This document shows, in pieces, positions 7,333 to 52,338 of a stretch of DNA of 64,000 nucleotides. Position 1 is the first letter of the stretch; each line of letters begins with the position of its first letter. The stretch lies in contig OZ361258.1 of the NCBI GenBank assembly GCA_977018835.1, forward strand, positions 1,736,001 through 1,800,000, in the 5' to 3' direction. The position numbers and the translations under genes were made by a program. The DNA is from Minutocellus sp. GHC0000111 (taxonomy: Eukaryota). The notes under the pieces are model-generated. The model had not been told where the DNA came from. It saw nothing but the letters and a program-made list of their open reading frames with translations, and made no database searches.

Positions 7333-10300
7333 TTACTTGCCACCCTTCTTGAGCTTCTCCTGGAGTCGCTTGAGCTTCTCGGCTCTCTCGGCCGCGGTAA
7401 TATCAAGCTTCTCCTGGCGCTCGGCAGCATCCTTGTTGGCCCGCTCCTCCAGCTCGGTCAAGAGCGAATCCTTGTAATCGTCGAATCCTTCCACCCACTC
7501 GGTGCACCCTTGCTTCTCGACGACCCAAAGACCACAGTCGCAATTCTCGATGAGGCGTTGGTCATGCGTGACGACGACAATGCCGCCGTTGAATTCGTTC
7601 ATGGCGTCGATGAGAGCATCGATGGTCTCGATATCGAGGTTATTGGTAGGCTCATCGAGAAGCAGAACATGGTGGCGCTGGAGACTGAGATCTACAAAGA
7701 CAACACGAGCCTTTTGTCCACCACTGAGATCGCGCATGGTGACCTCGTGGGCGTGTCCTTCCAGGCCGTACTTGCCAAGACGGTTGCGGATGGATTGATA
7801 ATCCTGGTCCTGGTAGCGATCGCGAAGATGTTCCACAGGCGTCTTGTTCATCGGCAGCCGATCAACAAAGTGCTGATTGTAGATACCCATTCGAAGTCGA
7901 GGATTTCTGCGGACCTCGCCCTTGGTCGGCTCCACTTCTCCGGTCAGGAGCTTCAGAAGTGTACTCTTACCGGCACCATTGGGGCCGATGACGCAGATGC
8001 GGCTGTCCATATCAATACCGAAGTCGATGCGATCAAAGATGATGGGGTGCTTCTCAGAGTACCGGAAGTGGACGCGATTGACCTCCAAAACTGGGCGAGA
8101 CAGCTCGGCAACCTCGGCGAACTCCAACTTAACGGTGTACTCCTTGGGCCGTTTGATGAGCTCTTCTTGCTTGGCAGTGTCGGTACCGGCGGCGACGGCT
8201 TGGTTCTGCTTCTTCTTGGCGGCCCTGGCACCGGGCTCGCGCTTATTCTTCTTGACTTGCTCCGTAGCCTTGGCCTTGGACTGTCCCGATCGCTTCAACT
8301 CGCGAAGACGCTTCTCTTGCTTCTCCCATGCCTTTTGTTGCTGCTTGATCTTGGTCTTCTCAGCCTTCTTGAAACTGTCGTAGTTGCCCTTGTACGAAGC
8401 AAGCTTGCAATCTTCAATGTGAAGGATTTCCTGACACACCGAGTTGAGGAAATCTTGGTCATGCGATACGACAAGGAGCGTCTTCTTCCACTTTTCAAGG
8501 TAGGCATCCAGCCAGATCACAGCGTTCAGATCGAGATGGTTGGTCGGTTCGTCAAGCATCAAAAGAGTCGGCTCAATGAAGAGCGCCCGGGCCAGCGAGA
8601 TGCGCATTCTCCATCCACCGGAGAACTTCTTGGTGGGCTGAACCTGCATCTTTTCGTCGAAACCAAGACCATACAAAATCTTTCTCGCCTTGGCCTCGGC
8701 GGATGCGGCTCCAATCGCCTCGAGCTCATCGTACACGGCCTGCAAACGAGCGACCTTCTTGGGATTCTCATCGCCGGAATCAATGGCTTCCGTCAAGACC
8801 TTCTCCTCTTCGAGAAGATTCCATCGAACCTTGTCTGCCTTGAGGACGGCATCAACGGCGGGAGTATTGTCCGCGACAACCTCCTGCTCAACGTAGAGGA
8901 AATCGACGCGAGGGGGGAGAATGAGATCCTTGGAGGCAATCATTTTCAACAACGTGGATTTGCCTTTGCCGTTAGGGCCAACGAGACCATACCGACGTCC
9001 GTGAGCAATGTTGAATGCGGCGTCCTGAAACAGAACCTTTCCGGCGGCACTAATGTTGAAGGACGGGATGTTGATATCGAGAGAGTTCATCCACTGAGGA
9101 TCGTTCTCATTGACAGCCGTCTGAGAGCAGGCAAACTGGGCGCCCTCCGCTGACTGCTTGGAGGCGACCTTTTCATACTCGGCCATACGCTCTTGGGCGG
9201 CACGCTCCTTGAGAATGCGCTTGCGCTCCTTGAGAATGCGCTTGAGCTTTTTGCCATCCTTGCCGTAAATGAGCTGTGGGGGTAAAAGAGGGCGGAATGA
9301 AAATGCGATGCATGAGAAAAATGGATCAGGGATGCACATAATTGCATTTTCACAGGAAAAAATTGACAAGGCACAAAGAACTCACACTCATATCGGGACC
9401 CTCCTTGGCCTTCTCCTCGGCCTCCTTGTGGGCGTGACTCTTGTCGGTCCAGGCGTGATCATCGGGCGCACCGTACATGAGATCATCGTCGTCGTCCTCG
9501 CCGCCATCCCCTCCCTCCTTCTTGTCCTCACCGGCCTCCATAGCGGCCATCTTGGCGGCACGCTTGGCCTCTTTCTCGGCCTTGCGTCGTTTCTTCTCTT
9601 CCTTCTCGGCCTTTCGGCGAGCCTGCACGGTATTCATTGGATAGAACGAACAAATAAAAAAATAAAGTGAGACGGTAATACTTACAAGACATCAATGCAG
9701 TGGGAAGCAAACCATTGCCATGCATATCACCGGATAAAGACAAACATGATACAGCACGTCATGTAATACTCACTTTCTCGGCCTTTTTCTTGGCCTTTTC
9801 ATCCATCTCAGCATCATCGCCACCATCACCGCCGCTACCGTCGGCGGCGGCATCATCGTCATCACCCTCGGCATCCTTGAGCTTGGAGGCCTCCTCCATC
9901 TTCTTCTCGAGTTTGCTCTTCTTCTTATCCTTTTTCTTGTCCTTCTTCTTCTTCTTCTTCCCGCCGTCGTCGCTGCTGTCATCGTCCAGGGCCAGGGCAG
10001 CCATCTGATTGAACATACCACCCTTGTTGGACTCGGACTCGTCGTCGTCATCTTCGTCGGCTGCCTCTTCTTCCTCCGCTTCCGACTCAGAGTCATCAAA
10101 CATGGCAGCCTTCGCAGCAGCCTCCTTGGCCTCTCTCTCCTTTTGCTTCTTGAGCTGCTTCTTCGTGAGCTTCTTGACCGGTTGGGCAACTTCCTCCTCC
10201 TCCGACTCTTCGTCGGCCGAGGGCTCCGGCTCGGGTTCCGGCTCGGGTTCGTCCTCCTCCTCTTCGGACTCCGAGTCATCCAGCATAGCAGCAGCCTTGG

Positions 10301-10831: not shown

Positions 10832-10994
10832 CGTTGTGGGTACCGCACGGTGGGGATGAGCTGGCGACGGTGGTTAGCAGCAGGCACTAAAACTGCATTC
10901 CTGTAGTGCCCAGTTTTTCTGCTGACCACCACCTTCGCCTCCTCTCGTCTCAACTGACCAAGCCACAACCATCTGCGATTGCTGCCGTTGCAAT
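10832..10994 (+). repeat. Repeat A copy 1 (163 bp); further copies at 11390-11552 and 19303-19467
   Basis: Near-identical CGTTGTGGGTACCGCACGGTGGGGATGAGC...GCTGCCGTTGCAAT occurs three times. Confidence 0.95.
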
Positions 10995-11615
10995 CCAGGT
11001 CCAAGAATTTACATCCGGAGTCTCCACACGCATGATCCAACGAGGTTCCTTCTTCAACGTGCCCCACGCACACTCGACGAGCCATCGCGAAGACCCAAGG
11101 ACCCCAAATTGCCGCCAATCCTTCGCCGGCATCAACAGCATTGGCCGAAATGCCGGCTTCGGGACTCCAATGCCCCCCTTCGCCCTGTTCACCTAAGCAC
11201 GACACACATTATTGGCCGATCTGTGCTACGGAAAGGAGGAGGGGGAGAGGGACCTCACCCTCTAAGAAGTTTCATTTACCGCCAATGCCAGCTCCAGTTC
11301 ACGTAGTTAAACTGCATTTCATGTTCTACTAAGTTGTTGCATAGAGTTGGGAGAATCAGCGGAGGGAGGTGCTGTGTTCGATGTATCATCGTTGTGGGTA
11401 CCGCACGGTGGGGATGAGCTGGCGACGGTGGTTAGCAGCAGGCACTAAAACTGCATTCCTGTAGTGCCCAGTTTTTCTGCTGACCACCACCTTCGCCTCC
11501 TCTCGTCTCAACTGACCAAGCCACAACCATCTGCGATTGCTGCCGTTGCAATTGCTAAGTCAGCTTACAGCACCGGCTCCCAGAGCCTGTCTCTCTCTCT
11601 CTCAGTAGTTAGTTA
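10995..11615 (+). repeat. Left long direct repeat C-A-D (about 620 bp)
   Basis: Matches 18906-19532 from CCAGGTCCAAGAATTTAC to (CT)n CAGTAGTTAGTTA. Confidence 0.95.
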
Positions 11616-11659
11616 GTTTTAGCATATTAGGTTGGTGCTGCTCTACGAGTTCGTAATTA

Positions 11660-13219
11660 TTGGCCGACACACCACCACTGCTGTTAGTCCAGAGACCGCA
11701 GTCGACTCCGGAGTCAAACGGCCACGGCTCAGCTCCGTTGATAGTGCACGTAGATCCGATACCAGTCTCTACGACGGCAGAACAGTGCATGGCCGAACCA
11801 GATCGACCGGAACTGGATCACGTGTTGTTCGGAGTGGCAAGAGACCTCATCGTCCGAGGAGACTCTCCTGACCTTCCACGAGGCTGGGACAGACTCAGAC
11901 GTCAGATTCGGCCCGGGCGCAGAAGTTTCTTCACAGCCAGGGCGTCGTCCGAGAGACTGACCACAGACGCACTGGATTGGTGGAAAAGTTTTGCCGAGGG
12001 CCGAATCGACGTTACCGAGTGCCTCACCGATCTCGTCGAGCGCGCCACAGGCTACCTCCCATCGAGAGCCACGGGGTACCAGCCATCCCCAGCAGCAGCC
12101 GTTTCACACCTTACTCCAGTAGCGCACGGTCTGGTCGCCGAGTGCCTCGAGCAACAAGCCTTCTTGGTGTCACCGGACTGGCCCACGTACCTCGTCAACA
12201 TCTGGCTGATAGCCACGCGCCTTACCGAGCCTGAGATCCGCCGGGCACACGAGACGGCAACTGAGTTGGACCTGAGCAGTGCACTGTACCGACTACCACG
12301 GGCAGACGGAGGCGTCGTGGTTCAACAGTGTCGGGGGCGAAGGTGTCCGGAGGCATCGGTAGCAGCAGCGCGGCAACACCATTGCATCTGGCCCCAGCTC
12401 TGCCGGCTCACGCAGTGCATCCTCCACTACCAGGCCGACCGAAAAGAAAGACGGCGCATCGCGGCCAGAGAGGGCAGACCTCTAGAGCCGACACCGTACG
12501 CTTGCATAGGTTCACGGGGGAGCGAGCTTCCACCAACGCTGCCGCTCACTTATTTCGAGAGGGAGGTAAGGCCACTCTTCTACCCACGTGACGCACACGA
12601 CCGAACCGAGCGGGCTGGCGTCAGTGTGGCATTGGAGCGCGAGGAGATCTCATCGGCCCTTTCGCCCTGCCTGATCACCCAGTTCCCGCTGGATTCGCCG
12701 CACCCGTTCCAGAGACGGCAGTACCTACGACCGGACCAACTCACTGAAGCTATTATCAACTGGGACAGTGGATTCGAGAGCCTCACCAGCGCTCGACTCC
12801 GACACACTCGGCCTGACAGCAATCCTCTTGGACACCGAGTGGAGGTCAACCCGTACGAATGCTGGGGAAGGCTGGCAGACCTAACGGCGTCCCCCTCACA
12901 CCGCTGGGTAGGCACCTACCATCGAGTCTATCCGAGGTGGCTAGACGACACGGCCGATCCAAATCGCTGGGAGGGCACCGACTACCGCGTCTGGCCAAGA
13001 GCATCAATTCACCGGCGCCCCGACGATTTCGAGGCACCTATCCGCCTGCGAGATATCACCGCCGATATTTTGGTATCAGAGCCACCGCGTCAGGCATTCA
13101 ACATCCTTCTATCCACCTTTGGAGAGCCCGACATCGCCGACCGCATCCTCACCCTCACGGCCGATCTGAACCACATCCAGCGCCGAGAGGACCGACGCCG
13201 AAGGCGACAGGCAAGGTGA
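11660..13219 (+). CDS. Retrotransposon ORF1, unknown function
   Basis: 519-codon open frame (first ATG 11789) inside the element, directly upstream of the gag-like ORF. No recognised domain. Confidence 0.65.
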   Translation: MADTPPLLLVQRPQSTPESNGHGSAPLIVHVDPIPVSTTAEQCMAEPDRPELDHVLFGVARDLIVRGDSPDLPRGWDRLRRQIRPGRRSFFTARASSERLTTDALDWWKSFAEGRIDVTECLTDLVERATGYLPSRATGYQPSPAAAVSHLTPVAHGLVAECLEQQAFLVSPDWPTYLVNIWLIATRLTEPEIRRAHETATELDLSSALYRLPRADGGVVVQQCRGRRCPEASVAAARQHHCIWPQLCRLTQCILHYQADRKERRRIAAREGRPLEPTPYACIGSRGSELPPTLPLTYFEREVRPLFYPRDAHDRTERAGVSVALEREEISSALSPCLITQFPLDSPHPFQRRQYLRPDQLTEAIINWDSGFESLTSARLRHTRPDSNPLGHRVEVNPYECWGRLADLTASPSHRWVGTYHRVYPRWLDDTADPNRWEGTDYRVWPRASIHRRPDDFEAPIRLRDITADILVSEPPRQAFNILLSTFGEPDIADRILTLTADLNHIQRREDRRRRRQAR

Positions 13220-13235
13220 TCGAGCATTGATCACA

Positions 13236-15543
13236 ATGGCTTCATCTTTCAACACCTGGAAGTCAGTCCTGCTGGCACAAGAGATGCCGGCCGGGGCCGA
13301 CGCCGCCGTAGCTCGAGATTTCCAGAGATTCCTCGCCGACAACGTCTGTGAAACCGACCCCACGGCCGCTGTGGTCCAGAGCCATGCCCGAGCGATCCAG
13401 CAGCAAATCCGCGACGCCGAGGGTTTGTCCATGCTGGCCCACCATCCAGAAGGGAAAGTCGTGGTGATTCACCATGCCGTGGCTCAGGGAGGCACCACCA
13501 TGCAGCCCGACCTCAGGTTGGGTGGGCTCCTCGGGATCGACGATGTAGCCCCGGCAATGTCGTTGGCCCAACCTAGCCTCTTGCGGCACAAGGAGGTCCT
13601 AGCCCCATCGGTGGAAGCCATGCTGGGGGCACCGTCAGAAGCCGCCCTAACCGGTCTCACCCAGGAAGGCTCCAACACCCGCCACCGGAGTGCCTCCACG
13701 AAGTTTAAGTCCCTTGTGCCACTGCCACCTTCGATTCTGCAGAATGTTCTGGAAGAGCACGAGGCATCGCCTTGGGCCATCCTGTCCGCCATCAAACGTC
13801 GGCTGGATGAGGACGCCGGCAGCGACGACGCATCAGACAGCGGTGACGACGAGGGTCATGGCGCAGCAGGTCTTCGCTCCAATGAGGCTGTTCAACACGT
13901 CGTCAAGTGGCTGTGGTTCGTCGCCACGTCCGAGCAAGGTGACATCCCGGCCGTCAGCTTGTGCCCAACGACGGACCCGGCTCTCAAGACACACGCCCGT
14001 GAGATGCACGCTCGGCACATCACTGGCGCCAGTGGCGACGGACCACCAGCCGGTGGCGCCCCGACCGACTCTGCAGTTGCTGCCGCGGCCAACGCCATGA
14101 CTAGGGCCGCGTCCGAAGCATCCTCCCTCACCGGCGCAGTCATGGCCTACACTGACAAGGTCGACAAGAAGCACTCGATGAATGGCGCCATCCTCAAGGC
14201 CTGTGCCGCTTTCTGCCGGGTCTCGACCGAGCATGACGATGATGTAGCAGCGATCGACTCGAATCTTCCCGAAGGATTGAAAGCACTGCTGGAAGAGTCA
14301 AACCTCACGCAAGCAGCCGTCGGCCTCGAGCTGCATGTAAAGGGCAAGACCGGAGTCAGGACATCTCTCCAGGGCCTCACCACTTACGTCCGCCTCTTTG
14401 GCTTCGGGAAGAGCGACAAGAAAATCTACGATGGCTTCTCTGTCTTCGCCTTTAGCCCGGTAAACTCCAGCAGCAGCAATGCGCCCCTGTGCCTCTCCGC
14501 CTCTCAAAAGAAAGGACACACCTCGACTCAGGTGAAGGCTCTTCTGAAGCAGAACTACCGGTCCCCAACCGAGTGCGACGGTGCCAAACGTCACATCTCG
14601 GCCTTCGGCGCTGGCATTTCCTTCCTTGCCGGAGAGGATTCCGAGCCCGCTCGCTACGTCGCCAGGGTCCTCAGTCACATGAAGACACACGAGGACCAGT
14701 GCCGCGACATCGCCGAGAGCCATGGCGAGAAGTTCTGGCTGGCGATGTTCCACAACATCGACGCCTCCATCCATGCATTCTGGAAAGCTTGTCTCCGTTC
14801 CCCCCGACGACGCCGGCAACGACCTCTCTTGCTTCTCAATGGCCGACGAGTCCAAAAAGACAACGAAGACTCAGAATCCTTTCGTCTACCCCAGCCACAT
14901 CAAGCTCGTCCAATCGGCCGACGCTCCCACCCCTTCCTCGGATTCCGACTCCGACAAATCAGAGCCAAGAACCAGTCCGAAAAAGAAGCAAAAGACGGGC
15001 GGCGCCAGCGGCAGAGCCCACCAGTGCGAACACTTCGTCACGTTCAACATCAACCCCGGCAACTTTGCAAAACGGCATGGCAAGAAATCCGAGCCCTATG
15101 AGGACAGACCTGAAATTAATGGCTGTAAATTCTGCCCTCCATTCATCCTGATAGGTGTCTGCGGCGCCGGATCCTCGTGTAAGCTCAAGAAGTCGCATGT
15201 CAAGTTTCTCGGCCAGCCGGCCGAGCTCGTCCCTCCAAGCGCCGTCGAGTGCAGCCAGATGCGTCGGCGTCGATCCGCCCCGGTGGCTCCAGCCGCCCAA
15301 GGTTGTCCGGCACCCCAAAATCCGGCGTGTGCGGTCGCAACGACATCAGCAACCAATCCAGGCTCTCCGGTGCCCCTAACACCGGAGCAGAAGGCCGAGG
15401 CGTTAGCAGTGACCTTCGGTCGGGTCCTGGTCCCCCTAACACCAGCGGTGATGCCTGCGCCGACAACAGCATCTCAGGCTCTGGCTCCAGCACCACTAAC
15501 GCTGGCGGTGCGGAAGCCACCGACAACCTCTTCGACCGGCTAG
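13236..15543 (+). pseudogene. gag-like ORF with C-terminal CCCH-type zinc finger; frameshifted at about 14800
   Basis: Lies before RT. FCPPFILIGVCGAGSSCKLKKSH (C-x8-C-x5-C-x5-H) is in the shifted frame. The 3' end is approximate. Confidence 0.6.
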
Positions 15544-15756
15544 GCCAGCGAGAGAAGGATCTCCTAGGCAAGCAGCCCCAACCCGAAGCACAGTCTCCCC
15601 CTGGTTCCCCTACGCACAGCAAGGAAGCAGAACCGACACGCCAAAATGGTAAGTGAGACCAACAGGTGAAGAAACACCTACAACAAACGGGGCAGCCCAG
15701 CGCCCACAATGGGCCCACCACGGTCGGACAGACCCGCATGCTCGTGAACGTGCAGC

Positions 15757-18347
15757 ATGTGCATGTCTCACCTTTTTCTCGCCTCATGCAATTCCACGTG
15801 GGAACTAGAGCCCATCTTCGATGTTTCCACCTTGGTGCAGTGCGTCCGACGAGCAGTCGAGTCCCCGTCGGCCACACCGAAGCCCACGGAGTTCAGATTT
15901 GAGCTCTTGACGGAGGCCGCCGCTCACAATTGGTCGGTCCTCAAGAAACACGATCGTTCTCTGAGCAGGGCACTCGAGGCGCAGGGCGGGTCGCCACTCC
16001 AACCGGGATCGGAGTTCAGAGACCTGAGTCTTCTGGAGAGCCGATTCTTGGCCGGCACCCGCTGTGGCCCCGCTTCCGCTCCATTCTCGACAGTGGATCC
16101 GACTGGGCCCTCGATCCGGTGAGCGACGAAAGCAGACTGGACAGCGTGACAAAGAACATCGGCCGAGGCAACCACAAATCGGCCAGGGATAGGCCGGAGG
16201 TGCTCAAGGACCAAGTTCTCGACGACGTGACCCGCGGTTTCGCCCTCCCTCTGCCAGCAAAGGTCGCGCCCCTCATTCCTGGAGCGGAGGTGGCTCCGAT
16301 GGGTTTGGTAGCACAGAACACGATCAGCGAGGCTGGCGAGATCATGCCCAAGGACCGCCTGACTCACGACCAATCCTTCGAGATCGGTGCCGCACGGTCC
16401 GTCAACAACAGAGCACGCATGGAGGACCACCAGCCAGTGGTGTTCGGCCATGCCCTCCGGCGAGTGATCCACCACATCGTAGACGCCCGTCACAAGCATC
16501 CCCGCACTCCCATCCTCCTGCAGAAGGTCGATTTCAAGGCTGCGTGTCGCCGGGCCCACTTGGCTCCCAGCACGGCCGTCAAAACGATCACCACCCTGGA
16601 TGGCATTGCCCTCATGTCCCTCCGGCTGACTTTCGGCGGCCGCCCTTGCCCGAGCGAATGGTGCAATGTGTCCGAATCGGCGGCCGACCTGGCCAGGGCC
16701 CTCCTGCAATGCTCGGACTGGGACCCGTCAGAGCTCCACAGCCCCCAGCAGAAGCACTTGGGTCGCCCCAAGGTGGAGGGCGACTATGTGCCGTTCGCGC
16801 CGGCCCTGGACATGATCGCAACCCTTCCCGACAACAAGGATGGCATCGTCGAGCCGCACATCGATGACCTCATCGCCGCAGCCCCTGACCTGGGCGACAA
16901 CAAGGATCGGACATCCGCTGCCACCCTCCTCGCCATCCACGCGCTTGGCCGACCGGTGTCCGACAGCGAGCCACTGCCCAGAGATGACCTTGCCTCCATC
17001 AAGAAGCTGCTCGCCGACGGGACGCCTTCCGAAGCACTGTGTCTCTTGGGGTGGGATGCTGACACCCGGCGGCTCCTACTGAGGCTCCCTTGGAGCAAGC
17101 ACCTGGCCTGGCGCGATGACATGCTTCGGCTCCTCAGAGCCCGCGGCGCCACCAGATCAGAGCTGGACACCTTGGTCGGAAGGCTAAACCACGTCGGATG
17201 CATCATTCCAGCCGCACGACACTTCCTCAGCCGCCTTCGGGATCGGCTCTGGAAGGCCCGCCGCCACGGCCGCCAACGGTTCGACTCTGAGGATGCAGAA
17301 GACCTCAACCTATGGCTCCGCTTCCTCCGAAGGGCCGCCGATGGCATGAGCATGAACCTCCTCACGTGCCGTTGCCCCACCCACGAGCACACAAGTGACG
17401 CCTGCGAGCACGGCATCGGCGGATGGTCCTCATCCGGCAGAGCGTGGAGATTTGCCCTCCCCGAGGAGCTGTGGGGCCGGTTCACCCTCAATTACCTGGA
17501 ATTCCTCGCCGCCGTCATCGGCCCATGGATCGACCACATCGAGGGCAACCTGCCAACCCTCTCCTGCGTGCTGTCGGGGACCGACAGCACCACGGCCGAG
17601 GGATGGCTCAGGAAGTCGAACTTCGTGTCTCACGGCGAGAAGGATGCCGACGTAGCGGTCAAGCTGGCCACGGCGCGGAAACTAGCCGACACACTCATCG
17701 AGACCAACACCATGCTGCACTCACAGTGGTTCCAGGGGAAGCGCAATCCGGAGGCCGATTCTCTTTCTCGTGACACCGATCTCTCTGATGCTGACCTCAC
17801 GAAATTGCTTCTGTCATCTCCCGAATGTCAGCTTCCCTCAAATTTCAGGATTGCACCACTACCCAACGAGATTGCTTCCTGGATTGTCTCGCAGGCGCGG
17901 ACGCTGCCCGTCAGGAAGCAGTCACAACGGCCACTGCCGAGAAGCACGCTCTCGCGTGGAGCCGCTGGACTGAGTTCCTGCAGCTCATCGGGACCGGGGA
18001 CGACGTCTTCCTCGACAAGGTGTCACCCCGAGACCGAACAGTCATTCTCGGCGCCTTTGCCCACGCCGTCCGACAGGCCAGCTTTTCGGGGCCAAAGTTT
18101 TCGCGACTGGCTGCGTCGACAGTCCGAGATGCCGTCTCACATGCATGCTCGTCCTTCCGGCACAACCAGCGCAGGGACCCAGGGAAAGACGACATCGGCC
18201 AGCCTTCATTCCTTCTGCAGCGGCAGTTCCGAGGATGCAGCCAGTCCGACCCGGCCGAGCGGCCGGAGAAGGCGATCACCTGCCGGCTCCTCCGAGAGAT
18301 CGCCTCCGTCAGGGAAACGGAAGAGGACCGTGCAGTCGGGCAACTAG
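15757..18347 (+). pseudogene. Reverse transcriptase / RNase H of YR retrotransposon
   Basis: KDRLTHDQSF, KVDFKAACRR, LRLTFGGRPCPSEW, HIDD (for YIDD), LGW, and RNase H TSDAC..GIGG, NYLEF, TDSTTA, NPEADSLSR. Frameshift near 16040. Confidence 0.92.
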
Positions 18348-19109
18348 CCGTCGGCGCCTTCTTCTTCGCGATGAGGTCTTGCGAACACTCCAGAGTCAGC
18401 GGTGAGCGCAGGACCAAGCTGCTCCGCCTCCGCAACATCCAGTTCTACCGCGGCCGACGGCGCATGTGTCACAACGACCGGTCCCTCCTCTCAGCAGACT
18501 CTGTCTCCGTCGCCTTTGAGTTCCAGAAGAACGACGAGCGTGACGTCACGATTGCGCAACACTGCACCCACGACGCCACCCTCTGCCCAGTTCGAGCTTG
18601 GGCTGCCCTGGTGAAACGAGTCCTAGGGCACCCTAGCACCAACAGCGATACGCCGGTAAATGCCTTCGTGGTCAACGGCGCATTAAAATACATTCCTGCC
18701 ACCCGAATAGTTGACAAGATCCGAGCGTCGGCCACAGTGATTGGAGAGAGGACGTCCTGGGCTGCCATCCCTCTGAATTCGGATCACACTCCATTCATTC
18801 GCAGCGGGGAGCAGCAATGGCAATGTATCTAAATGATGTTCCCACGTACACAATCATGCTGGTAGGGCGGTGGTCCAGTGACGCCTTCCTCAAGCACATC
18901 CGTCGCCAGGTCCAAGAATTTACATCCGGAGTCTCCACACGCATGATCCAACGAGGTTCCTTCTTCAACGTGCCCCACGCACACTCGACGAGCCATCGCG
19001 AAGACCCAAGGACCCCAAATTGCCGCCAATCCTTCGCCGGCATCAACAGTGTTGGCCGAAATGCCGGCTTCGGGACTCCAATGCGCCCCCCTTCGCCCTG
19101 TTCACCTAA
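17825..19109 (+). pseudogene. Tyrosine recombinase, overlapping the RT/RH ORF; frameshifted, catalytic Tyr replaced by His
   Basis: FFFAMRSCE, FEFQKND, LCPVRAW, disrupted HSIRSG (about 18790-18810), IMLVGRWSSDAFLKHIR. Confidence 0.9.
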
Positions 19110-19532
19110 GCACGACACACATTATTGGCCGATCTGTGCTACGGAAAGGAGGAGGGGGAGAGGGACCTCACCCTCTAAGAAGTTTCATTTACCGCCAATG
19201 CCAGCTCCAGTTCACGTAGTTAAACTGCATTTCATGTTCTACTAAGTTGCATAGAGTTGGGAGAATCAGCGGAGGGAGGTGCTGTGTTCGATGCATCATC
19301 ATCGTTGTGGGGGCACCGCACGGTGGGGATGAGCTGGCGACGGTGGTTAGCAGCAGGCACTAAAACTGCATTCCTGTAGTGCCCAGTTTTTCTGCTGACC
19401 ACCACCTTCGCCTCCTCTCGTCTCAACTGACCAAGCCACAACCATCTGCGATTGCTGCCGTTGCAATTGCTAAAAGTCAGCTCACAGCACCGGCTCCCAG
19501 AGCCTGTCTCTCTCTCTCTCAGTAGTTAGTTA
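18906..19532 (+). repeat. Right long direct repeat C-A-D
   Basis: Copy of 10995-11615 with a few substitutions and slippage indels. Confidence 0.95.
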
Positions 19533-20053
19533 ATTTAAGGCGGTAAATGAAACTTCTTAGACGGGTTTGAGGGAATTTCTGCCGCCGCTGGCCCGACATG
19601 TCCGATAGGGTGGGTTGTTTGAGCACCGTGAAACAAAAGAATTCAGTGTGACTAGCTAGGAATTCCTACATGTAGGAGTGCCTCCTACTTGAGTTATAAT
19701 ACTGTAAGAAATTTATATAAGATTCTACCGGTATCACCGCCAGAGAGGGTGTATGCAGCAAACCGGAAAAAATGCAACTCATATGTATTGAAGATCTGAA
19801 TTCATCCTCCTTCCTTCTTCGTTCGATGTGCCAATGATCAGAATATACGAGTGTCTTGGTCCCACTCTAGTTATCTAAGGTGGCTCATGTTCGACACACC
19901 CGTGCTCTCATCGCCACGCGCATAAAGTAAATCAGTTCACATACATAAATCCAATGCAACAAGTTGCGTGCCCGGATCAGCTTGCATCTAAATCATCAAG
20001 ATCTGTCGATACTCCTCTATAGTGACTTCTACTCCACTTCTTCCGCTTTCAAA

Positions 20054-28800: not shown

Positions 28801-30205
28801 GGAAGGGCGACAATTGAAGCAATCGGCCCATTCCGCTGGAGATTGGCGGGGACAAGCCGCGCAGAGGCGACGCCTGTCGACTGTCAGTTCCACCACTATC
28901 ATCCAAGGCGAAGTTGACGCCATCTCCACCATGAAGTTGTGCGTTCAAATTGCGTTGTACATCCTCAAGTCGCGCCGACCACTGCCGCCGGGCCGAGTTC
29001 AGCGTATGTTGTAAGTCCGACATAATCTCATCGTACCGACCAAGTGCTGACCCAAAGGAATTTCCACGAGATTTTTGGCTTTGAGAAGGCCGCGATGGAA
29101 GGGAATCATTTGGAAGGGCCACAATGACTGGTCCAGAATTTTTAGAACTTGAACTAGATCCAGCGGATGCGCCGCTACGTCGGAATATGTGTCTACCAAG
29201 CGCCTCATCATTTGTAACGGCACTATCCTCTGCACCTTCGATATTTTCAGCTGCTGGGATTGAACTATATGTCATGTTCCCGCTTGTCTTCTTCTTCAGC
29301 ACCGGCTTTTTGGCAATGATATTTTTGGAGGGCGATCCGACTTCAAAACTAGCCTCTATCGGAATGTCATGTTCATCTGCTCCATCCCCATTCGAACCGT
29401 AAAACCGCCGATAAGCATAGTAAGCCATCACCTTCCTATCTTTTCGTCTGTTGTCATCGCGAACAATGCTGTATTCCATGGGCGCAGTACTGCGAACGTG
29501 CATCAAAATTACGACATGGAAAAATGTCGATAAGAAGGAAAGCACCGAGATGATCCATAGATGGTCAATGAGAATTGAGGAGGACGTTGGCACCGGCTGG
29601 TGCTCATCCTGGAGATTCCTCCAGTCTCCATCCTCTTTGTCATCATAATCCCGCCCATCGCCGACTTCCTCTCGAACGAAACCACCGAATCCTTCCTCAA
29701 GGAATGTCCGAACCTCATGAGAAATCTTTGCAGCGACTGTGGTGTTGTTAGTTGTGCTTCCATTACTATTGCCACGCCCTTTCAAGAAAGGATGCAACCC
29801 CGACGGTAAACCGTCGGGCTCCAAATCCACATGAAGTTTCCATCCACCGCTGCTGCTGTGCTCTTCGGCATTGATGAGCAACCAAATCAAACAAGCCGCA
29901 GCGGCACCCAAACTCAAACAATGAAAGGCGTAGTGAATCTTCTGGTAGGGGATCCTCGTTCCCTTGAAGGTGTGATGCGATAGCGGATACATCAGGACGA
30001 CCAGCCGGACGGCCGAGCAGAAGAGCAGGATGTGCAGGAATATAGTTGCTACCCTTGGTAGTGGTGGGGACGATTCGCCGGCATTTTGGCCATCAAAGCC
30101 ATCTTCGTCATAGTCCTTGCCATCGTCATTGTGCCGACCACGCAAACCAACGTAAAGGATGGACAGGTCGGTCAAGGCCGATAACAATGCTGGCAAGAGG
30201 AACAT
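25843..30205 (-). CDS. Phosphatidylinositol 4-kinase (type III beta-like) with N-terminal TM region, 3 exons, frameshift at about 27270
   Basis: FYAPQLLSFL (helical domain), LSTNERVP, VLVKSNDDCRQEQLA, QIKDRHNGNILL, HIDFGF, FESAPFK. Introns 27727-27611 and 26661-26522. Confidence 0.9.
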
Positions 30206-31877
30206 TGTTTATTTCGTGCTGGTTTGTCTGTCTGCCGTGCCCAGACTACACGATTCTTTTGATGGCTATGCCACGATTGGGCACACAGCGGTGTCAACAA
30301 ATGATGGGCAATATCGCCGTAGATTGATGTAGAAGGCAACGCCCCCGAGAGGCCGACCGGCCACTTGAAGGCAGTGAGGTTCCCCGAGGTGAAAGTGCCG
30401 TTTTTTTGGCTTGATGAAGCAACGACCTCCCTTCTTGCCTGACTAATGTCCGCTACTGTCGCGAAGCCAAACAAGAATTTGCAGTGTCGAGACAGCAGCG
30501 CACAGCAATAGGCCGCGTTAGGCGACGATAGAGGCGAGGCAGCACGAGCAATACAATGCAGAGACGGCCGAGCGATGGGAAATGCGATTCCCTGCATGCA
30601 ACCAGCCCCAACTTCCTGCAACGCAACTCTCAGCCGAGCCACTCCCAGAAAATAAAATATGGTCTTGCCATCATCCGCCAAAGAGTGCATCTGAGACCTC
30701 ATCGGCTCGGCCGTCCGTTCCAGCCAAAACGTTGAGCGAGGAAGAGCAGGAGGCCAGAGGGCCGATCATGTGATAGGCTCATCTCTTCGCGCGAATCCCC
30801 ACTTCGTCCCAGAGGGGAACGATTCCTGCAATGTTTTCTTCTGGTCAGGAAATTCGCAGCAGGGCGTCCGGAGTTCTTTTGCTGCCTGACAGTCAGGAAT
30901 GATTGTGCCATGCATCGATGACGCTGGTACGATCAGTGCTTGGAAGCGCCATGGAGAAAGGCATTCCGTGGCGAGAGGGTGAGTGCAGTTGAGCAAAAGA
31001 GGCTTGGTAGTTCCAGATTTGATAAATCGTCGGAGCCGATCTGTTGCTGCGTTGGATGTTGTTGGCCGACTTTACCCCAGTGAAAGACGAAAGTATTGCT
31101 GGGCCCATGACGATTCAGATGTCGCTACCCACTGCAAAGGCACGGCGTCAAAAGCCCGGCCGAGAGGCTGGTGTCATCTTTGCGCCCTCTGCCGATGCAA
31201 CTCAATGTGTGCGTTCGTAACATCAGACCACAATTTTCTGAGGCCAGCAATCTGTCTGTTTGTTGAAGTCGATTCACTCTTCCGTTTGCAGTATGGTTCA
31301 CATTGTTTGATTTCGATTCTTGTGCAATTATGGTTTGCCGTCGTTTGGTATGGGTGTGCGATGCAGTAGTCAGGCCAATGATACATTAAAGTTTGAGATC
31401 ACGATGCAGATACTTTTCTGCAAGAGAGTGACAGCATATTCTTGATGAGGCCTTGACGTGCATTCATGCTCGCTCGTAGTGCTAGTGGCAATGCGGAACC
31501 GCGGGAGAACACCTATGTTTGTCAAGCTTTATTCGGGCAACTCTCCTCGATACTTACGCACACACATGGCAAATCTGCAAATTCCTCTTTTCCCTTCTCA
31601 ACTGATCTACCTGTAACAGCGCTACGTAGCTAGAATCTATTCAGACCCCACGCCTTTTCGGTCGGTTCACTTGCTTGCTTAAGTTTTCATTGGGGCTTGA
31701 TGATTTTCGCTGACATATTGACACATCACAGGGTGCCGTTAATATCGATACACTGAGATTAGTAACGGGATGGGGCATGGGATCTCATTATCAACGAAAG
31801 CAAGCAGGCAAGCAAGCACTTATCATCATCGCAGTCAGCCGGACGGCAGTCTGCCGTGTGCGGGCGGCGGCGCGCGG

Positions 31878-34800
31878 GTGTTGTGACCAATCTGCCCCGT
31901 GCGCAATCTACCCGGAAAACGGGACCACCGGCAGATTGCGCGTAAATCTGCCCTGATTTTCAGAATCAGGTTACAATCTGCCCCGACGATCAGGGTAGAT
32001 TGCGCGGGCGTGCATCTCGACGGTATCGCCTCCATTGACGCTCGCATCTCGCGGCCTTCACCTGTTTGTGCTCACATTGCAATAGGCATTGTTGCTGTGG
32101 CTCTGTTGTCATCAAATCATGCGAAGAGAGATGGTCGACGACACAACGAATCCAACCGAAAGTATCGACATTGCGATGGTTTCTCGACAATGAATTCCAG
32201 GCTGCCACCGAGCTTGCCGAAGATTACGATGCTCGACTGATTCTGGCAGATGAAACATATGAAAAAATAACGAGCGTATCAAATCAGTGCTGATGCAGAC
32301 GGTCCAAGACTTGTTTAGACCGCCGCAAGGATGGAACGCAATTCTTTCTGATTTGCAGAAAGCTGGAGAGAGAATATTGACCCACAACTGCCTACAAATT
32401 CCAAAACAAAATCGAGAGGCATTGTTTCTATTCGATTTGGACATGCTGCAATCAGCGCCAGATATACTGCGACTGCATGAAGCGAGAATATCCAGATTTG
32501 CCAAGGGCCGACTTTGACATGCTGCGACTGCAGCAAGAAGCGAGAAGCAACATCTGATAACAACATAATTTTATGAAATATACTAGCGGCATTCTTTGCT
32601 GATTTGTAATATATAATCTTGATACTACATGTACTTTTTAAAACATTGAATGAATTGTACATATGTCTGTGTATGAGCACATTTGAGCATTCGTTTCCTG
32701 ATTCATTTCCTACATGTACTACGTACCAAACATGGCTTGGATGCTCGGCGCTTCAGAAAGGTTCTCCCCCCTTCTTTTGGGAGTTTGATCGAAAAACCGC
32801 CCACCCCGCCCCACCGGCAACATTGGAATTCGGTTTGGTGGGACACATGCATGCATGGGGATCGTGTCAGTTTGCGGATCCCCATTCTGGTTCCGATGAT
32901 CTTTGAGCTTCTTCTTTTTCCGTAGCTTGCTTGTGCATCCTCACCGTAATTCTTCGCTGCAGCAGACGGGTCTGGCCGCAGACCCACTGCTGCTGCCAAT
33001 TCGGCAATCGTCGGCGCACCGGGCTTGTGCAGTCTCTCTTCCTTGTTTTGGCCCTGAGAATGTTCTCTTCCTCGTCGCTATCATGGTCACTGCACTCTCC
33101 TCGGTCCCACCGCTCTTGCCTCTCCATGTCCTCCATGCGAATTCCGAATTCCATCTTGACGTAACTCGCCTTTTCATCCTCCCTCAGCGTGGCCATAGCC
33201 CTCTCCACACCCGGGCCGGATCGGGTGCTGGAGTACTAGCTGCTGCTGCAGCCGCCTTCGCCGCTGCCTGTTACAGATCGGCGACATGATTTGTATATTT
33301 TATCGAGGCGAGGGCAGAAACCAGGGTACCTTTCGGTTTCAGAGGATTTGTAGAGGGTATACCAATAACCCCTAAAAAAGGTCATTCTTGCACCCATTTC
33401 TCATTTCCCACCACGTGTTTTGTTAGTCGACATTCTCTTCGGGAGGAACGCAAACACTCCTCAACTCGTGGATATCTACTGGACCTGCTCATTCAGTAGG
33501 TTGCCACCGACCAGTAATATCCACTGAATTCGCAGGTCCAGTAGATTCTGGCAGGAACACATGTATTTTTTGGTCCCCCGCACACCCTCACCACCCCACC
33601 GCAACCCGCAAATTTTGTGACGATGACGACGACCAACCAGACCACGCCCAAAAATACAAACGCAGCAGAACTTCGTTCTCAGGGAGCAAGAGAGGCAACA
33701 CCAAGGCATCCAGGAAGGCGGCAAAGGCGGCAGCTGAGCCGAAAACACCATCGCCGAGCGCAAACACGTCGAAGAAGCGGCCGCCACGGTCGGTCAAATT
33801 CGCCCGCCAAACCGTCACCGTCGTCGGCGAAGAAGAGGACGGCCCCTCCTCCTATCCCCATGGCCTTTCTCCTTGCAGCAGATGTCATTCGAAGGGCTGG
33901 TAAGGATCTGTGGTGGAGAGTAACCCCCGATTCCTGCGGCAAAGATGACATTTGTGTTGGTTCTCGGCAGAAATGGGGGAAGACGTCCTCCCTTCTTTCA
34001 TCGAGGCCGACTTGTTGCGTTCCAAGTCCGTCGGTGGAGGAAAGTATGAGCTACAGTACAACGAGGAAAAATGGAAGGACATGCAGCAACATCTCAAGGA
34101 GCATTGTAGTTTGAAGTTGCACTTGTCGACGTGTCGGCCGAGAGGGAAGACAAGACGCAGGGCGCTTTGTGTTTGTGCTCACAGGTTGCGTAAAAAGAAG
34201 GAGGACAACCACCCGAAATTCTCTGGACCGGAGGGACAGAAGGTGCACGAGAAAAGAAATCCCGATGAAGTTCTGTTCTCTGGGCGCTCGACTGTCTTAG
34301 CTACTAAGCTAGGTGAGAGGTTGTCAGCTCACAGAAAGGAGGCACAGTCAGCGCATTGCGAAGCAAGAGCAAAATCACTAGTCGACGAGGCCAAGAAACT
34401 GGGTTGGATGCCAGCAAGTCTCCTCAGCATGCTGAAGGGAACTGGTGATACTTCCGCCACTGAAGCAGCTGCAGCCTCCCCCAATGATGAAGGTTTAGGA
34501 GGAGCCGATACTTCCGTTGTCTGTGCCACCTCCAGTGACATTGATGAACAGGTAAAGGTCGCTCTCGGCCTCGACTTTGTTGTTCGGATGGCCAACGATG
34601 ACATGCTCCGTCCTCCTCGTCCCAATGCAACCGTCACCGAACCAATGCCAATCAGAAAAGAAAAGCAGGCGAATGAAAGAATGCGGTTCAGCGCCGTGGC
34701 TCTCGCGGATTGGTGGGGACACGGCGACCCAACTCGCACGCATGAAGACCGGCAACAAATTGCAACTAACTGCCGCGTGTCGGCAAGTTGCGCACGATCA

Positions 34801-36989
34801 CGGTTGTGCCAAGTCAACCGGTGGTTCTCAGCTTTACAAGTGGAGAGACCAGCTCTACAAAAGCCTTGCTGATGGCATCAGCAATCCCATCGGCAGAAAG
34901 GAGGTTCGTGGAAGGAAGGAAGGCATGCACGGACATGATCGAGGAGAAGGAGCCAGGACATCTCCGCGAGCTGTGTCGGCATGCTGCTCGGATGAAGGGT
35001 GCGATGGCAACCTTTAAGGAGCTAGCTGACTGTATGAGCGCAAAATCAGCTACTCCAGATGAAGACAGGCTGACAATTAGTCTCCATCGTCTTCAGCTTT
35101 TTCGCTGGTGGAAAAAGCAAGGCGGTGAGGAGAAGTCGTCGATCGAGAAGCCGAGGCTCACCCCCGAACGTTGTAGGAAGCGACTTGATTGGATCGAAAA
35201 GTGGGAGGACATTGCGACCGATCCCAACATTCCTGTAGCGCATCTTGATGAAAAGTGGTTTTACACTGCTACTCGGCGACGAAAGCAAGATGTTGCCACT
35301 TTCTGAGGAAGAGCTAAGCAGTCCGAACCTCGCGTCTGTCCATGCTTCCGAGGCAAGCCCGAAAATTCGATCCAGAAGACACCCTGTCAAAGTTATGTGT
35401 CTTGGAGTTGTTGGCCGACCAATGAAGGATGAAACCAAAGACGTTGATTTCAATGGGCGCATCATGATCAAGAGAGTCGCCAGGGAGCAGAAGGTGGAAA
35501 AGCTTACGCGTAATCAGAATTTCTCTCCAGATGCTAAGGTCAACGATGCGCTAAAAAATGACAAAGATTGGCGCGACATTTACGACGAGAATGCTGACAT
35601 GACCGCCGGCCATCTTTGCGACCACATTGCCGAAATCTACGGCCTTTCTGAGTTTGTTACAGAGCGATTGGAACTTCAATACGAGGACTATAAATCCGAC
35701 GGTCAGGCAAAAAGTCGCAAGCATGCCGCTGTTGGCTACAATCAAAAGATCTCGAGTCTCAAGCGACACACTCCTGATAGCAATGTGGAGAGAAGGTGAA
35801 GGTTGAGATCGACGACCTTGAGCTCGGGGTGCGGCATCAACGGGGCGATAAGGTTACCAAGGACTGTAGCTGCGACTCCAAATGGATGTTGGAGACTATG
35901 AATGAGGTCGGGAAGGCGATTCGAGACGCACATCATTGGGTGAAGTGGGATCCACAAAATATTCAGGAGTCTGATGTTATGTGTCTTATGATGGACAATG
36001 CCGGCGGTCATGGGTCCAATGAAGCAGTTGAGAAGTACACCGAGGACCTCAAAAACAAATATAAGATTGAGACAATCCAGCAGGTTCCTCGGTCGCCCGA
36101 GACAAATGTTCTTGATCTCGGCATCTGGATGTCTTTGCAGTCGGCCGTCGAAAAGGAGCATCGCGGTCAGAAGAATGATGCGAATGCTCTTGACAAGACT
36201 GTGATGAAAGTATGGGCCAATGTCGCATCAAAAGAGGCCTTTCTCAATGTATTTGGAAAACTTCCAGTGATATATAACAACATCAAGAGAAGTCGTGGCG
36301 GTAACAATCTTGTGGAGACCAGACGGGGAAAGGCTGGTCTCGCAAAAATTGCCGAGGAAGAAGCTGAAGAGGATGGTGAACCACTCTGGCCAATTGATGC
36401 TCCCGGCGAAGATGATGACATTGAGGACGACATAGATGAAAATGATGAAGACGATGGAGTCATTGATTTGCTACAACTTATCATAGCATGTCCATTTCTA
36501 TTCATTACATTTTGATTTGGTGCTTCCAAAAATGTGCATTTTTTCCCGGGGTGAGGAATGCAAATGTCGAAAAAAATCATCACATAATGTACATTTATTG
36601 GTTCTGGTGCACAATATCTCTCGACTATATGTAGAAGTTGGTGACCATAACTTGGTTCTTGCCCCGACTTCCATCTTGGCCGTCATTTTTTCCTCGGAGT
36701 TAGTTAGAAAAAGTGAGCTTGGATTTTTGGTCTGGTGTGGTCGTGTTTCTAATGCGTCATCATCACGTCACTTTCAAATCCTCTGAACTCGAAATGTAGA
36801 TGGGGTTTCCGGGTAGATTGGTTACGAGCACAATCTGCACGGAAATGCTCCCGGCAGATGGGGGGCAAATCTGCGCAGATTTGGAACCGGGGGGAAAATC
36901 AGGGCAGATTTGGAACCGGGGGGAAAATCAGGGCAGATGGGGCGAAAAATCAGGGCAGATTTTTTTTCCGGGTAGATTGGTCACAACAC
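31878..36989 (+). mobile_element. Tc1/mariner (IS630-Tc1-mariner) DNA transposon, DD39D type, about 5.1 kb
   Basis: Terminal inverted repeats GTGTTGTGACCAATCT(G/A)CCC, subterminal AATCTGCCCTGATTTT / AATCTACCCGGAAA repeats at both ends, and an internal transposase. TSD not recognisable. Confidence 0.85.
33617..36515 (+). pseudogene. DD39D transposase, several frameshifts
   Basis: LDEKWFY, KVMCLGVVGRP, MDNAGGHG...SPETNVLDLG with 39 residues between the 2nd and 3rd Asp. The 5' start is approximate. Confidence 0.88.
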
Positions 36990-37303
36990 GGGCGGGGGGG
37001 GGGGCGCCGGGACGAGAGATTTACGCATTAGAAACATTTTTACACAACTTCGATGGGTACATATAGGAGCCCTTTCACCAAAATTTCACATCGTTTGGTC
37101 CCGTCTCCGAAACATCGGAGGAACTCAAATGAAACGACGAAGGCAAACGACGAAACGCCAAACAAGCAATAGGATCGAAGGTTCGGGTTGGAGCCAATCC
37201 TTGGCAGCAGCACCTCGCACCTCTCGGGTTCCTCAACGCACACATCTATCGTTTGCCCACCAATCAGCAGATATCCCTGCTCTATCAAAAACAAGCAACA
37301 GCA

Positions 37304-39289: not shown

Positions 39290-39375
39290 AAAAACCTAAC
39301 TGGGCAAAGGAGGCGCCGGCGCATTTGTTATACACCGGTTTCCGACTGACCTCAATCAGTGTCGTAGATCTAGTA

Positions 39376-39553
39376 CAGTCCGTCCCCGAAAATAAGCATA
39401 TCCATTCTGGAGCTGAGGTCTCAATATGCTTATTTTGGAATAAGGCATTTTAACACGAATGAGATACCAATTGCTTCTTAGAATAAGCAATAGGCCCAAA
39501 ATCTGAGGTCTCAAACAAGCATGTCAAATATGCTTATTTTCGGGGACGGACTG
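39376..39553. mobile_element. MITE (Tc1/mariner/pogo-type), 178 bp
   Basis: Perfect 26-bp TIR CAGTCCGTCCCCGAAAATAAGCATAT flanked by TA on both sides. Confidence 0.92.
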
Positions 39554-39865
39554 TAGATCTAGATCTCTAGGTCCAGTTCTAACTCGTAGTCTAGCATGTT
39601 TAGATTTTTGTGTTTTGCAGCTCTACTACATGTACTACGTAGTTCTTCTAGATATACTACACCTGCCTGCCTCTCCGTACGCAGCGTGATTATTGGTGAG
39701 TGGTTCGCATCGTGTGTGCGAACCCCGACCCGCAGGCGGAGATTCGATCACGCGTGCTGAATGAATCTCATGAAAGAAGCAAAAGCCAAATTCGGTGGGC
39801 ATGTTGCGCAATAAAAGAGATATATGCACTCCTGATAACAGAAGAGGGCATGCTTTACGACTAGC

Positions 39866-46295: not shown

Positions 46296-47390
46296 GTCGT
46301 TGATCTGGCTTCATATCTTTCGCTTGAGTTAAACCAGATTTTATTTTTTCACTTTTTCTCTAGAAGAATCCAAGCGGTTCCATGTTCCAAGGTCGTGAAT
46401 AAACGTGGTAATGGGTGCAAGCTGTTGCGTGGCTATTTGTAATAATATTATGCTCGTGTTGTGCAGTTGGCTTCGGCGGCCCCGCAGTTCGGCCTCGTTC
46501 GCTTTTTGATGCGCGCGGCAATGCCAACAAACCAATACAAGTAACCTGTGCGAGGTGACATGATCATACAATAGCCCATGCAGTCTGAGATTGCAGAAAG
46601 TGGAACAGAAAGTGGAACAGAAAGTGAAACACGTCAAAGCCACGATCACAAAGACAGCGTCAATGTCACGGCAGGCAACACCAATTTACCTTCAAGATCT
46701 AATTTATGCCCTGCAATCTAACACGGCAGTACAGTGCGGCACGAGCTTGTAGGCCTAATCATCTGTGGTCGGTCTACGGCGCATGTACATTGAAGGTTCC
46801 AACGCGGGTGCCCGTTACGTACATGTACATGCAGCGGCAAAGCTCATACGGTTTTTGGCATTTTCGCGGCAACAGCAGTGCCAGCTGGGCCAAGCAAGTC
46901 ACGCAATTAAGGGGAACGTGGTACATGTAGGCAGTGCCAACGCAAAGTACATGTACGTGTACCTAGAGGTACATGTACGCTCTTGCAGTCACAGCTCAGA
47001 GGCTCGGCCCAACTGAGGACCAATGCGTCAATGGTGGCTGGCCGGTTAGCCCGATGATTCATTAATTCATGGAACACAGCAGTGTAATATGCAACTCGGA
47101 ACTGAAATACCAATGCGTATTAGGAGGGCACATGTTGTCTAAGTTCGCCGATCTTGGCGATTCGGACATCACTGGTACATGTAAATGCAGGTTCAGGTAG
47201 ATGCAGCATCTGAAGGGCCGTCTGGGGATAGTAAGATTATTCCGGATGCCTTCTTACGGTACAAAACAACAAAGTGCTCTCATTCCTGCGTTGCTTCTAC
47301 AACTCCCTCTTTTATGGAGCATATTTCATGAAATTAAATCCTTTCTAATTTTTTCTCCACAGACTTCTCCCTTCTTGTCCACATGTTCAT

Positions 47391-51871: not shown

Positions 51872-52338
51872 TTAGAGCCGCTGAAATCTAAAGTCTTATC
51901 CGAATTATTGTTTCACATGAAGATAAATCAAAATTAGAGTAAAAATAGCCATTTTCTTAAATATTTCAGCATGACTATTCTTCGAGGCGCTTTTCAATCC
52001 CCTCGAAAGCAGTCAAAAACCGGGCGCTCGATTTCTCGCGAATCTGACCTCGTATGTGTAATGCAATCTCATCTGGATGGAGGTCCCTCCATCGTCGACC
52101 TTCTGACTTGGGAGTGTTGTTTTTCCTCATGCCGTCTGATGTCTGATGCTGTTTGCTCATCACATGTTTTTGGCATTGGATGCCGGCCATGGATGCTTGC
52201 TTGCTGGCGAGGCATACTGTACCATAGCGGCGGCAGAGAGCTAGAGAGGTGGCGCAGTAGTTAGGCGGCATTGGCCCCATTCCATCGCCGAGGCCCAGCG
52301 CAGGCAGCAGCACAATTGAATAAGCAGCCATCATCACC

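Follow-up and report, generated by a model that had tools for sequence, protein, structure and literature searches.

Loss of TpA dinucleotides from a DNA transposon of the diatom Minutocellus sp. suggests a DNA-level process shared by both classes of element

Why have two transposable elements of different class, lying in the same stretch of a diatom genome, lost the same dinucleotide? The stretch of 64,000 nucleotides analyzed here (the window, whose own numbering is used throughout) belongs to Minutocellus sp. GHC0000111 (GenBank assembly GCA_977018835.1, contig OZ361258.1, positions 1,736,001 to 1,800,000 of the forward strand) and contains a Tc1/mariner-type DNA transposon as well as a probable retroelement, both depleted in TpA (TA below). 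An earlier note, made from the letters alone, had proposed a DNA-level process that is independent of element class. Judged from the residues of element copies and from variants in public contigs, it is established that TA changes to TG or CA, that this is the direction of change, that it depends on an intact TA, that TA followed by a pyrimidine (TAY) is preferred, and that both strands are affected. From the same material, sites change independently of each other, copies carry uneven loads, and the class I element bears the same signature. The new and well supported observation is a TA-erasing hypermutation of a class II element, with evidence at the level of single copies that it acts on DNA.

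The class of the affected element is central to this question, and its features are as follows:

33327..36798, forward strand: whole copy of the Tc1/mariner-type DNA transposon with DD39D spacing; 3.47 kb, TA at both ends, inverted pair
33327..33350, forward strand: left TA and terminal inverted repeat (TIR); 24 nt, with 88% complementarity to the right arm
36775..36798, reverse strand: right TIR and TA, partner of 33327..33350
33908..36473, forward strand: broken transposase gene in six frame segments, located by tblastn with the relatives P0002, P0003 and P0005
33908-33976, 33979-34767, 34772-34912, 34917-35285, 35287-35784 and 35787-36473, forward strand: the transposase frame segments of the segment map
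from about 33590, forward strand: further N-terminal part of the transposase, upstream of 33908
35247..36116, forward strand: catalytic triad region, with Asp codons at 35247, 35994 and 36114
34561..35000, forward strand: the most TA-depleted core, with 3 TA left, none of them in RTAY context (R, purine), and at least 11 TG or CA sites that are residue-visible former TA sites
36474..36476, forward strand: former TAA stop codon, CAA in the window copy; T at 36474 in all four public runs

The TIRs, the TA ends, an empty-site joint and the D-D39-D spacing identify 33327-36798 as a class II transposon. The joint (33325>36796, skipping the element, three shared letters) was present in runs X1 and X9, and public contigs showed unrelated loose ends or other flanks at the left end (33326-33338). 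The gap between the second and third Asp measures 39 residues both in the window copy and in P0072, which represents a transposase cluster from another assembly, and D693 and D733 are invariant among 50 homologues. Profile support is thin, with HTH_Tnp_Tc3_2 in 10 and DDE_3 in 1 of these 50; a Pfam search with the window pieces, P0072, P0003 and P0005 returned no match, and a PDB search returned only a non-significant match to SETMAR (E 0.55) that spans the DEKW motif. According to PMC7325037, DD39D/PlantMar elements of the Tc1/mariner group occur in plants and a few oomycetes and have short TIRs and lengths of 2-6 kb. The window element resembles them in its short TIRs, length, DD39D spacing and TA ends, and differs in a transposase of about 850-960 residues, in which a long insertion separates the first Asp from the second. 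Read depth on the element reached about 10,000-23,000 in run X1, compared to about 7-15 on the flanking genes, which fits a large family but is not a copy number. The empty-site joint was deeper than single-copy DNA in run X9. The transposon is itself nested in a larger element (31873-36994) with imperfect inverted ends (31873-31961 and 36889-36994) and 29-nt repeats at its right end.

The earlier note had counted about three TA in 34561-35000. There are exactly 3 (34767, 34835 and 34856), where 20.5 are expected from base composition (observed/expected ratio, O/E, 0.15), and 36 in 34561-36200 (O/E 0.38). The window as a whole is TA-poor, with a median O/E of 0.54 over 440-bp windows, 4.4% of which are as low as 34561-35000, and GC-rich host genes range down to 0.27. 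TA depletion alone was consequently rejected as proof, since the background is already low and overlapping. The raw count being weak for this reason, the case rests on comparison with relatives. A metagenome scan for close DNA relatives yielded 24 loci, the best at 62% identity and thus too distant for comparison site by site; four of them, used for TA content only, had O/E values of 0.68 (L001), 0.59 (L003), 0.54 (L009) and 0.47 (L018).

Protein relatives were more informative. A search with the C-terminal piece retrieved the intact full-length relatives P0002 (95%), P0003 (89%), and P0005 and P0006 (75%); the transposase cluster comprises 275 members, the 15 listed lying on long contigs, and one transposase homologue comes from Chaetoceros tenuissimus. 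Copy-level counts were based on the window copy together with 15 of these 275 sister-copy proteins, i.e. 16 copies and 851 codons. Identical Tyr positions in the alignment are retained in part of the copies and read either His or Cys in the remainder, depending on the copy, while Ile is exchanged for Thr or Met, and Val and Thr for Ala; all exchanges expected in the earlier note (Tyr to His or Cys, Ile to Met or Thr, Val to Ala) were thus encountered. The eight His/Cys-rich motifs it had quoted are all there; frameshifts in the gene distribute them over three frames. Among 14 motif residues checked, 11 His or Cys replace a Tyr of the intact relatives, one Met replaces Ile, and two His are ancestral (the second H of VAHDHGC and the second H of DAHHWV). 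The His of WWGHG corresponds to Phe in the nearest intact relatives and to Tyr in other relatives and two sister copies. Of 19 Tyr that P0072 has in common with half or more of the far relatives in the alignment, 10 are replaced in the window copy, each by His or Cys, so that many of its His and Cys residues were once Tyr, as had been suspected, and are not shared with intact homologues.

The spectrum of these exchanges is narrow. TA>TG or TA>CA accounts for 196 of 262 residue changes over the 16 copies and for 27 of 31 in the window copy. Per visible opportunity, TA>TG was scored 197 times in 1173 (0.168), compared to 6/2421 for AA>AG (0.0025), 10/1941 for CA>CG (0.0052), 1/2896 for GA>GG (0.0003) and 8/1727 for CpG decay (CG>CA, 0.0046), and transversions at TA were rare (2/2308 opportunities). 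Counted as strand-sites with the window copy left out, 61 of 106 TA sites had changed as opposed to 5 of 218 AA sites (p 1e-30). The 3' neighbor had a strong effect: 56 of 74 TAY strand-sites were affected (mean 0.226) versus 5 of 32 with a 3' purine (TAR; mean 0.022; p 8e-9). These numbers bear on error-prone repair synthesis over transposon DNA by a polymerase-eta-like enzyme, for which WA is the known A:T hotspot in somatic hypermutation (PMC6423074) and with which the many short tandem duplications of both elements would agree. The near absence of change at AA, the scarcity of TA transversions, the lack of same-strand tracts (below) and the absence of clustering of the duplications near TA make this explanation very unlikely.

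The direction of change can be read from codons that vary among copies. At 23 polymorphic Tyr codons, 107 Tyr, 60 Cys, 58 His, one Arg and one Phe were found, where 16.9 Arg would be expected if both bases changed independently. As Arg is nearly absent, a site apparently stops mutating after one change, and the intact TA is therefore both target and ancestor. The outcome is TA loss with a rise in GC; no new stop codons were created, the transposase segments of the window copy contain no internal stop codon, and the TA>CA change at 36474 removed the stop at which intact relatives end, so that the reading frame continues. Wrong polarity, with repeat-induced point mutation (RIP) or methyl-cytosine decay making TA, could be suspected since, as long as no outgroup is used, a difference between TG/CA and TA can be read either way, and 14 events in 1858 were scored as TG>TA. 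Twelve of these 14 stem from two mis-polarised sites (50 and 682), Tyr is present in distant homologues, and His and Cys at one and the same site require a TA ancestor; the direction in the 16 copies is loss of TA, and not the creation of TpA by C>T changes at CpA or CpN that marks fungal RIP. CpG-type decay also looks different: cluster P0447 exhibits R>Q/W/C, T>M and S>L exchanges and no Tyr/His/Cys swap in 61 sites, and P0461 resembles it, while clusters P0072 and P0009 show Tyr/His/Cys, Val/Ala and Ile/Thr swaps, with three Tyr/His/Cys swaps among the 8 variable sites of P0072. On these cluster comparisons the process may be only patchily distributed among diatoms. An artefact of sequencing or assembly is countered by the alternative letters, which occur in the contigs of four public runs; these runs stem from different studies and one is recorded as Illumina. 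The chance that polarity or artefact explains the pattern is negligible.

Whether the signature is confined to class II can be answered with the probable retroelement of the window, which is represented by two features:

10832..19540, forward strand: retroelement with split direct repeats (Ngaro/DIRS-like reading), repeats D1-D3, D6 and D7
16038..18344, forward strand: its reverse transcriptase (RT)/RNase H-like frame, near saturation with 11 TA and no RTAY left

Four of seven substitutions between its direct repeats fall on TA/TG/CA sites, with one more beside an indel. Of 53 sister copies 50 were used (51 copies with that of the window); P0227 (99.9% to the window copy), P0257 and P0258 were dropped and P0103 was unused. 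The 15 polymorphic Tyr codons had 36 Tyr, 138 Cys, 187 His and one Arg, compared to 51.0 Arg expected, and the contrast between TAY and TAR was smaller than in the DNA transposon (0.43 vs 0.21) because the element is close to saturation. The signature is thus common to both classes, as had been claimed. This analysis was polarity-free, by site; outgroup-polarised rates (CA>CG 279/6764, TG>TA 108/3078) were discarded as inflated, since founder codons had been taken from the mutated window copy. A Pfam and PDB search with the frame, as found in the window and in P0104, gave no direct match; RVT_1-bearing look-alike clusters appeared at 0.96, with RVT_1 in 10% and 52% of their members. A recombinase motif read by eye, AFLKHIR at about 18800-18900, is presumably where the catalytic Tyr is to be expected and would be consistent with Tyr>His.

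Both elements have in addition accumulated tandem duplications of 2-4 nt (e.g. at 33975, 34764, 34910, 35784 and 36698), which cause most of the frameshifts. The window copy of the DNA transposon has about a dozen indels, and the repeats of the class I element differ from each other by five short ones; the frameshifts of the window transposase coincide with indels in public contigs, and sister copies contain 25 in-frame insertions versus 8 deletions. No link of the duplications to TA sites was found in either comparison of mean distances (17.8 vs 15.9 and 25.6 vs 22.0).

The arrangement of changes along single copies addresses how they arose. TG-type and CA-type changes were both observed in all 16 class II copies (112 and 83, respectively). 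Same-strand pairs within 60 nt were as frequent as expected (class II, 26/52 vs 26.8; class I, 62/139 vs 61.1), and same-strand clustering was seen at none of four distance classes in either element. Linkage between sites (r2) was 0.105 for the 21 pairs of the DNA element, compared to 0.166 after shuffling, and 0.071 for the 271 pairs of the class I element, compared to 0.062 +- 0.005 after shuffling; in the class I element, all four state combinations occurred in 218 of the 271 site pairs, without lineage structure. The load per copy was overdispersed (chi2 60.5, 15 degrees of freedom), ranging from 5 of 33 readable sites in P0057 to 17 of 32 in the window copy, and showed no correlation with changes of other kinds (rho 0.09 over 11 copies). 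From the two strand types, the lack of coordination, the unlinked sites and the uneven load we infer single, independent changes on chromosomal DNA after insertion, and neither one pass over RNA, cDNA or gap-repair DNA nor, apart from a few fixed changes (below), inheritance.

The earlier note had excluded RT error and RNA editing on the ground that a class II element has no RNA step. This conclusion stands, but class alone does not carry it, as it leaves room for single-stranded DNA in gap repair and for inheritance from a mutated founder; these are disfavored because both strand types are found in 16/16 copies without coordination or linkage. RNA editing or RT error carried back to the DNA level, or one pass over DNA that is single-stranded while transposition or gap repair takes place, would draw on the preference of ADAR and TadA-fold enzymes for U before the edited A (10.64898/2026.01.13.699255) and on the occurrence of element sequence in RNA runs, which indicates presence only and not transcription. 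APOBEC or ADAR editing of retroelement intermediates would be expected to leave one clustered strand type per copy, unlike the randomly interspersed types seen here, and the hot spot of ADAR is given as UAG in PMC10661471, yet TAG is among the coldest contexts here (6/172). Together with the two TIRs and the empty site of the DNA element, and with the state combinations of the class I sites, this renders such a route extremely unlikely.

Host sequences served as controls for a TA-specific bias acting throughout the genome. RTAY O/E amounts to 0 for the core as well as for the RT frame and 0.41 over the whole DNA transposon, but 0.70-1.25 in 10 of 13 host regions, where the TA deficit lies in YTAR, opposite to the element core and the RT frame. 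One host gene was used for residue comparison:

7333..9381, reverse strand: host ABC-F gene, control; nearest named relatives in diatoms (Odontella aurita, 84%)

All 10 of its conserved Tyr were kept. Its diatom relatives, together with the transposase homologue of C. tenuissimus, indicate that a centric diatom is the probable host. DNA-level variants were taken from the contigs of the same four public runs. Among the 40 listed of 49 variant places in the element, 32 of 37 transitions made or broke TA, inside as well as outside the coding region, with three transversions, while among the best 40 of 240 differences in a mostly host stretch of 17 kb this held for 9 of 30 transitions, alongside 10 transversions (p 3e-6; in each of the two stretches a change of this kind is open to about 0.2 of the bases). 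The contigs of run X18 were without the host stretch. A second haplotype or paralogue, about 10% different, was noticed in short blocks (48826-49033, 46310-46657 and 55868-55998), one with a 600-letter insertion, and the kilobases around these blocks contain 0-2 differences. A genome-wide mutation bias that merely becomes visible in dead transposons free of selection would agree with the TA poverty of the whole window and with three RTAY-poor host regions described below, and the ABC-F gene, being under purifying selection, says little on mutation by its kept Tyr. Such a bias is nevertheless decidedly unlikely in view of the ordinary host variants, the RTAY retained in most host regions and a copy load that varies without tracking other divergence; in the alga Bigelowiella natans, moreover, the comparable process is confined to two regions (10.64898/2026.01.13.699255).

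A literature search for a diatom report of this signature, with subscription journals largely outside its coverage, found none, and the preprint on B. natans (Mettrop et al., bioRxiv, 10.64898/2026.01.13.699255), which concerns integrated DNA of nucleocytoplasmic large DNA viruses (NCLDV) as well as virophages, was alone relevant. According to this preprint, 231 de novo changes in two viral insertions were nearly all at TpA, mutation-accumulation lines demonstrate that the change arises in genomic DNA, and an ADAT2 homologue is proposed as the cause. The de novo rate is given as about 1000-fold above background, in some lines only; the overdispersed copy load observed here is merely compatible with such lines being on or off. 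DDE endonuclease and RT domains are described as enriched among TpA-poor coding sequences of B. natans, and class independence is therefore already hinted there. Both cases share A>G/T>C changes restricted to TpA, on both strands of genomic DNA, uneven between lineages. They differ in that the present host is a stramenopile, the targets are multicopy transposons of both classes, and the evidence comes from copies rather than mutation-accumulation lines; the TAY>TAR preference, the contrast between TA and AA and the lack of strand coordination, shown here, are not reported in the main text on B. natans. The main target in B. natans is single-copy, so that homology pairing is not needed there.

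Fungal RIP, by comparison, consists of dinucleotide-specific transitions on both strands which degrade repeats of either class and spare genes. It makes TpA from CpA and introduces stops, whereas here TpA is removed, no stops arise and GC is raised; its changes are C>T and homology-targeted, as summarised in 10.64898/2026.01.13.699255, and PMC7884421 concerns RIP indices only. A closer chemical likeness is offered by evolved TadA (TadA8e), for which PMC13225742 describes A>G/T>C changes that are dispersed over the genome and favor TA. TadA8e is engineered, however, and amphioxus ADAT2, cited in 10.64898/2026.01.13.699255, has in-vitro support, while the enzyme considered here is putative; no TadA/ADAT2 paper matching the 3' pyrimidine preference was found in the literature searched.

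The explanation we favor, which is moderately probable when taken as a whole, is TpA to TpG/CpA conversion by a host TadA/ADAT2-like adenine deaminase acting on transposon DNA. Such a putative enzyme would convert the A of 5'-TAY-3' to inosine in chromosomal transposon DNA, replication would fix the inosine as G, and changes would accumulate on both strands, one site and one copy at a time, over many cell generations after insertion. It might be targeted to transposon DNA via silent chromatin or small RNA, beyond a mere lack of selection, and could serve as a defence. Tyr and other TA-bearing codons would be lost without new stops, and frameshifts from a separate process would finish the gene. 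The parts of this account differ in strength: on the copy comparisons a DNA-level, TA-specific process acting on inserted copies is very probable, and it is likely that the process is directed at transposons. Granted both, adenine deamination would be a reasonably probable chemistry, favored because the B. natans authors propose an ADAT2 homologue and because TadA8e makes genomic A>G/T>C changes at TA.

Several points weigh against this account. As TA is palindromic, A>G in TAY is indistinguishable from a T>C change of RTA read on the opposite strand, and a transposon-directed thymine lesion, in which an oxidised or modified T of 5'-RTA-3' pairs with G and yields T>C, would fit the data equally. 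Thymine in oxidised form mispairs with G, and it serves as a mark of repeats in some protists. A lesion of this kind is unlikely, as no such mutator was found in the literature searched while a TadA-fold enzyme acting on genomic DNA is documented to prefer TA. Turning back to adenine deamination, three of the 13 host regions are low in RTAY (O/E 0.31-0.50), which could be due to codon usage or to spill-over of the mutator near repeats: a GAF histidine-kinase-like gene (375-2629, 0.34), a PI4-kinase gene near the outer repeat (25846-30765, 0.50) and a low-complexity frame adjoining the retroelement (9750-10718, 0.31). The left part of the outer repeat flanking the transposon retains its RTAY sites (0.97), so that not every repeat is affected, and the distant relative locus L018 is about as TA-poor as the transposon itself (0.43). 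Several RTAY sites in the 3' half have scarcely changed (2/14 at 35680, 1/11 at 36036 and 0/11 at 36060) and are left unexplained by the 4-mer rule, and at about five positions (34246, 34980, 35767, 35931 and 35380) all copies, or almost all, carry a Tyr>His change that may have been inherited from the founder. The sister copies are gene-caller proteins and hence biased to long open frames; codon changes were deduced from residues, and founder states from relatives, with silent changes invisible. The host-variant control consists of the best-supported differences only, most of which lie in two diverged blocks, and part of it is coding sequence.

Elsewhere in the window, 39374-39555 is an element of 182 bp resembling a miniature inverted-repeat transposable element, with perfect 28-nt inverted ends and TA at start and end, and is probably a non-autonomous Tc1/mariner-type insertion. 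Two segments 53 kb apart (3331-3396 and 56600-56665) form a 66-nt inverted pair with 82% complementarity, which is more suggestive of a coding motif common to both than of a terminal repeat. Repeat-level depth was observed in X1 and X9 at 51683-52057 (thousands vs 8-350 around), just upstream of a phosphoglucomutase-family gene, in a segment with an AT-rich right half.

What is known of natural, targeted A:T>G:C mutation in genomic DNA comes from a single preprint, on one alga. The cut-and-paste element removes RNA and RT from the explanation and extends the process to diatoms, where genetics is available, so that enzyme and targeting become testable. Its hundreds of near-identical copies act as parallel replicates and yield the TAY rule as well as a non-processive, two-strand fingerprint for candidate enzymes. 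In practice the process would inflate apparent transposon ages, raise GC content and hide elements from profile searches, and the long His/Cys-rich frames left behind would be annotated as proteins by gene callers. As a tentative reading, somewhat short of an even chance, diatoms might possess a mirror image of fungal RIP, in which a native DNA adenine deaminase reads TAY in double-stranded DNA, is steered to elements of both classes and erodes them copy by copy. Such a process would be shared in kind with chlorarachniophytes and may represent an old defence across the stramenopile-alveolate-rhizarian (SAR) group and a natural A-to-G editor.

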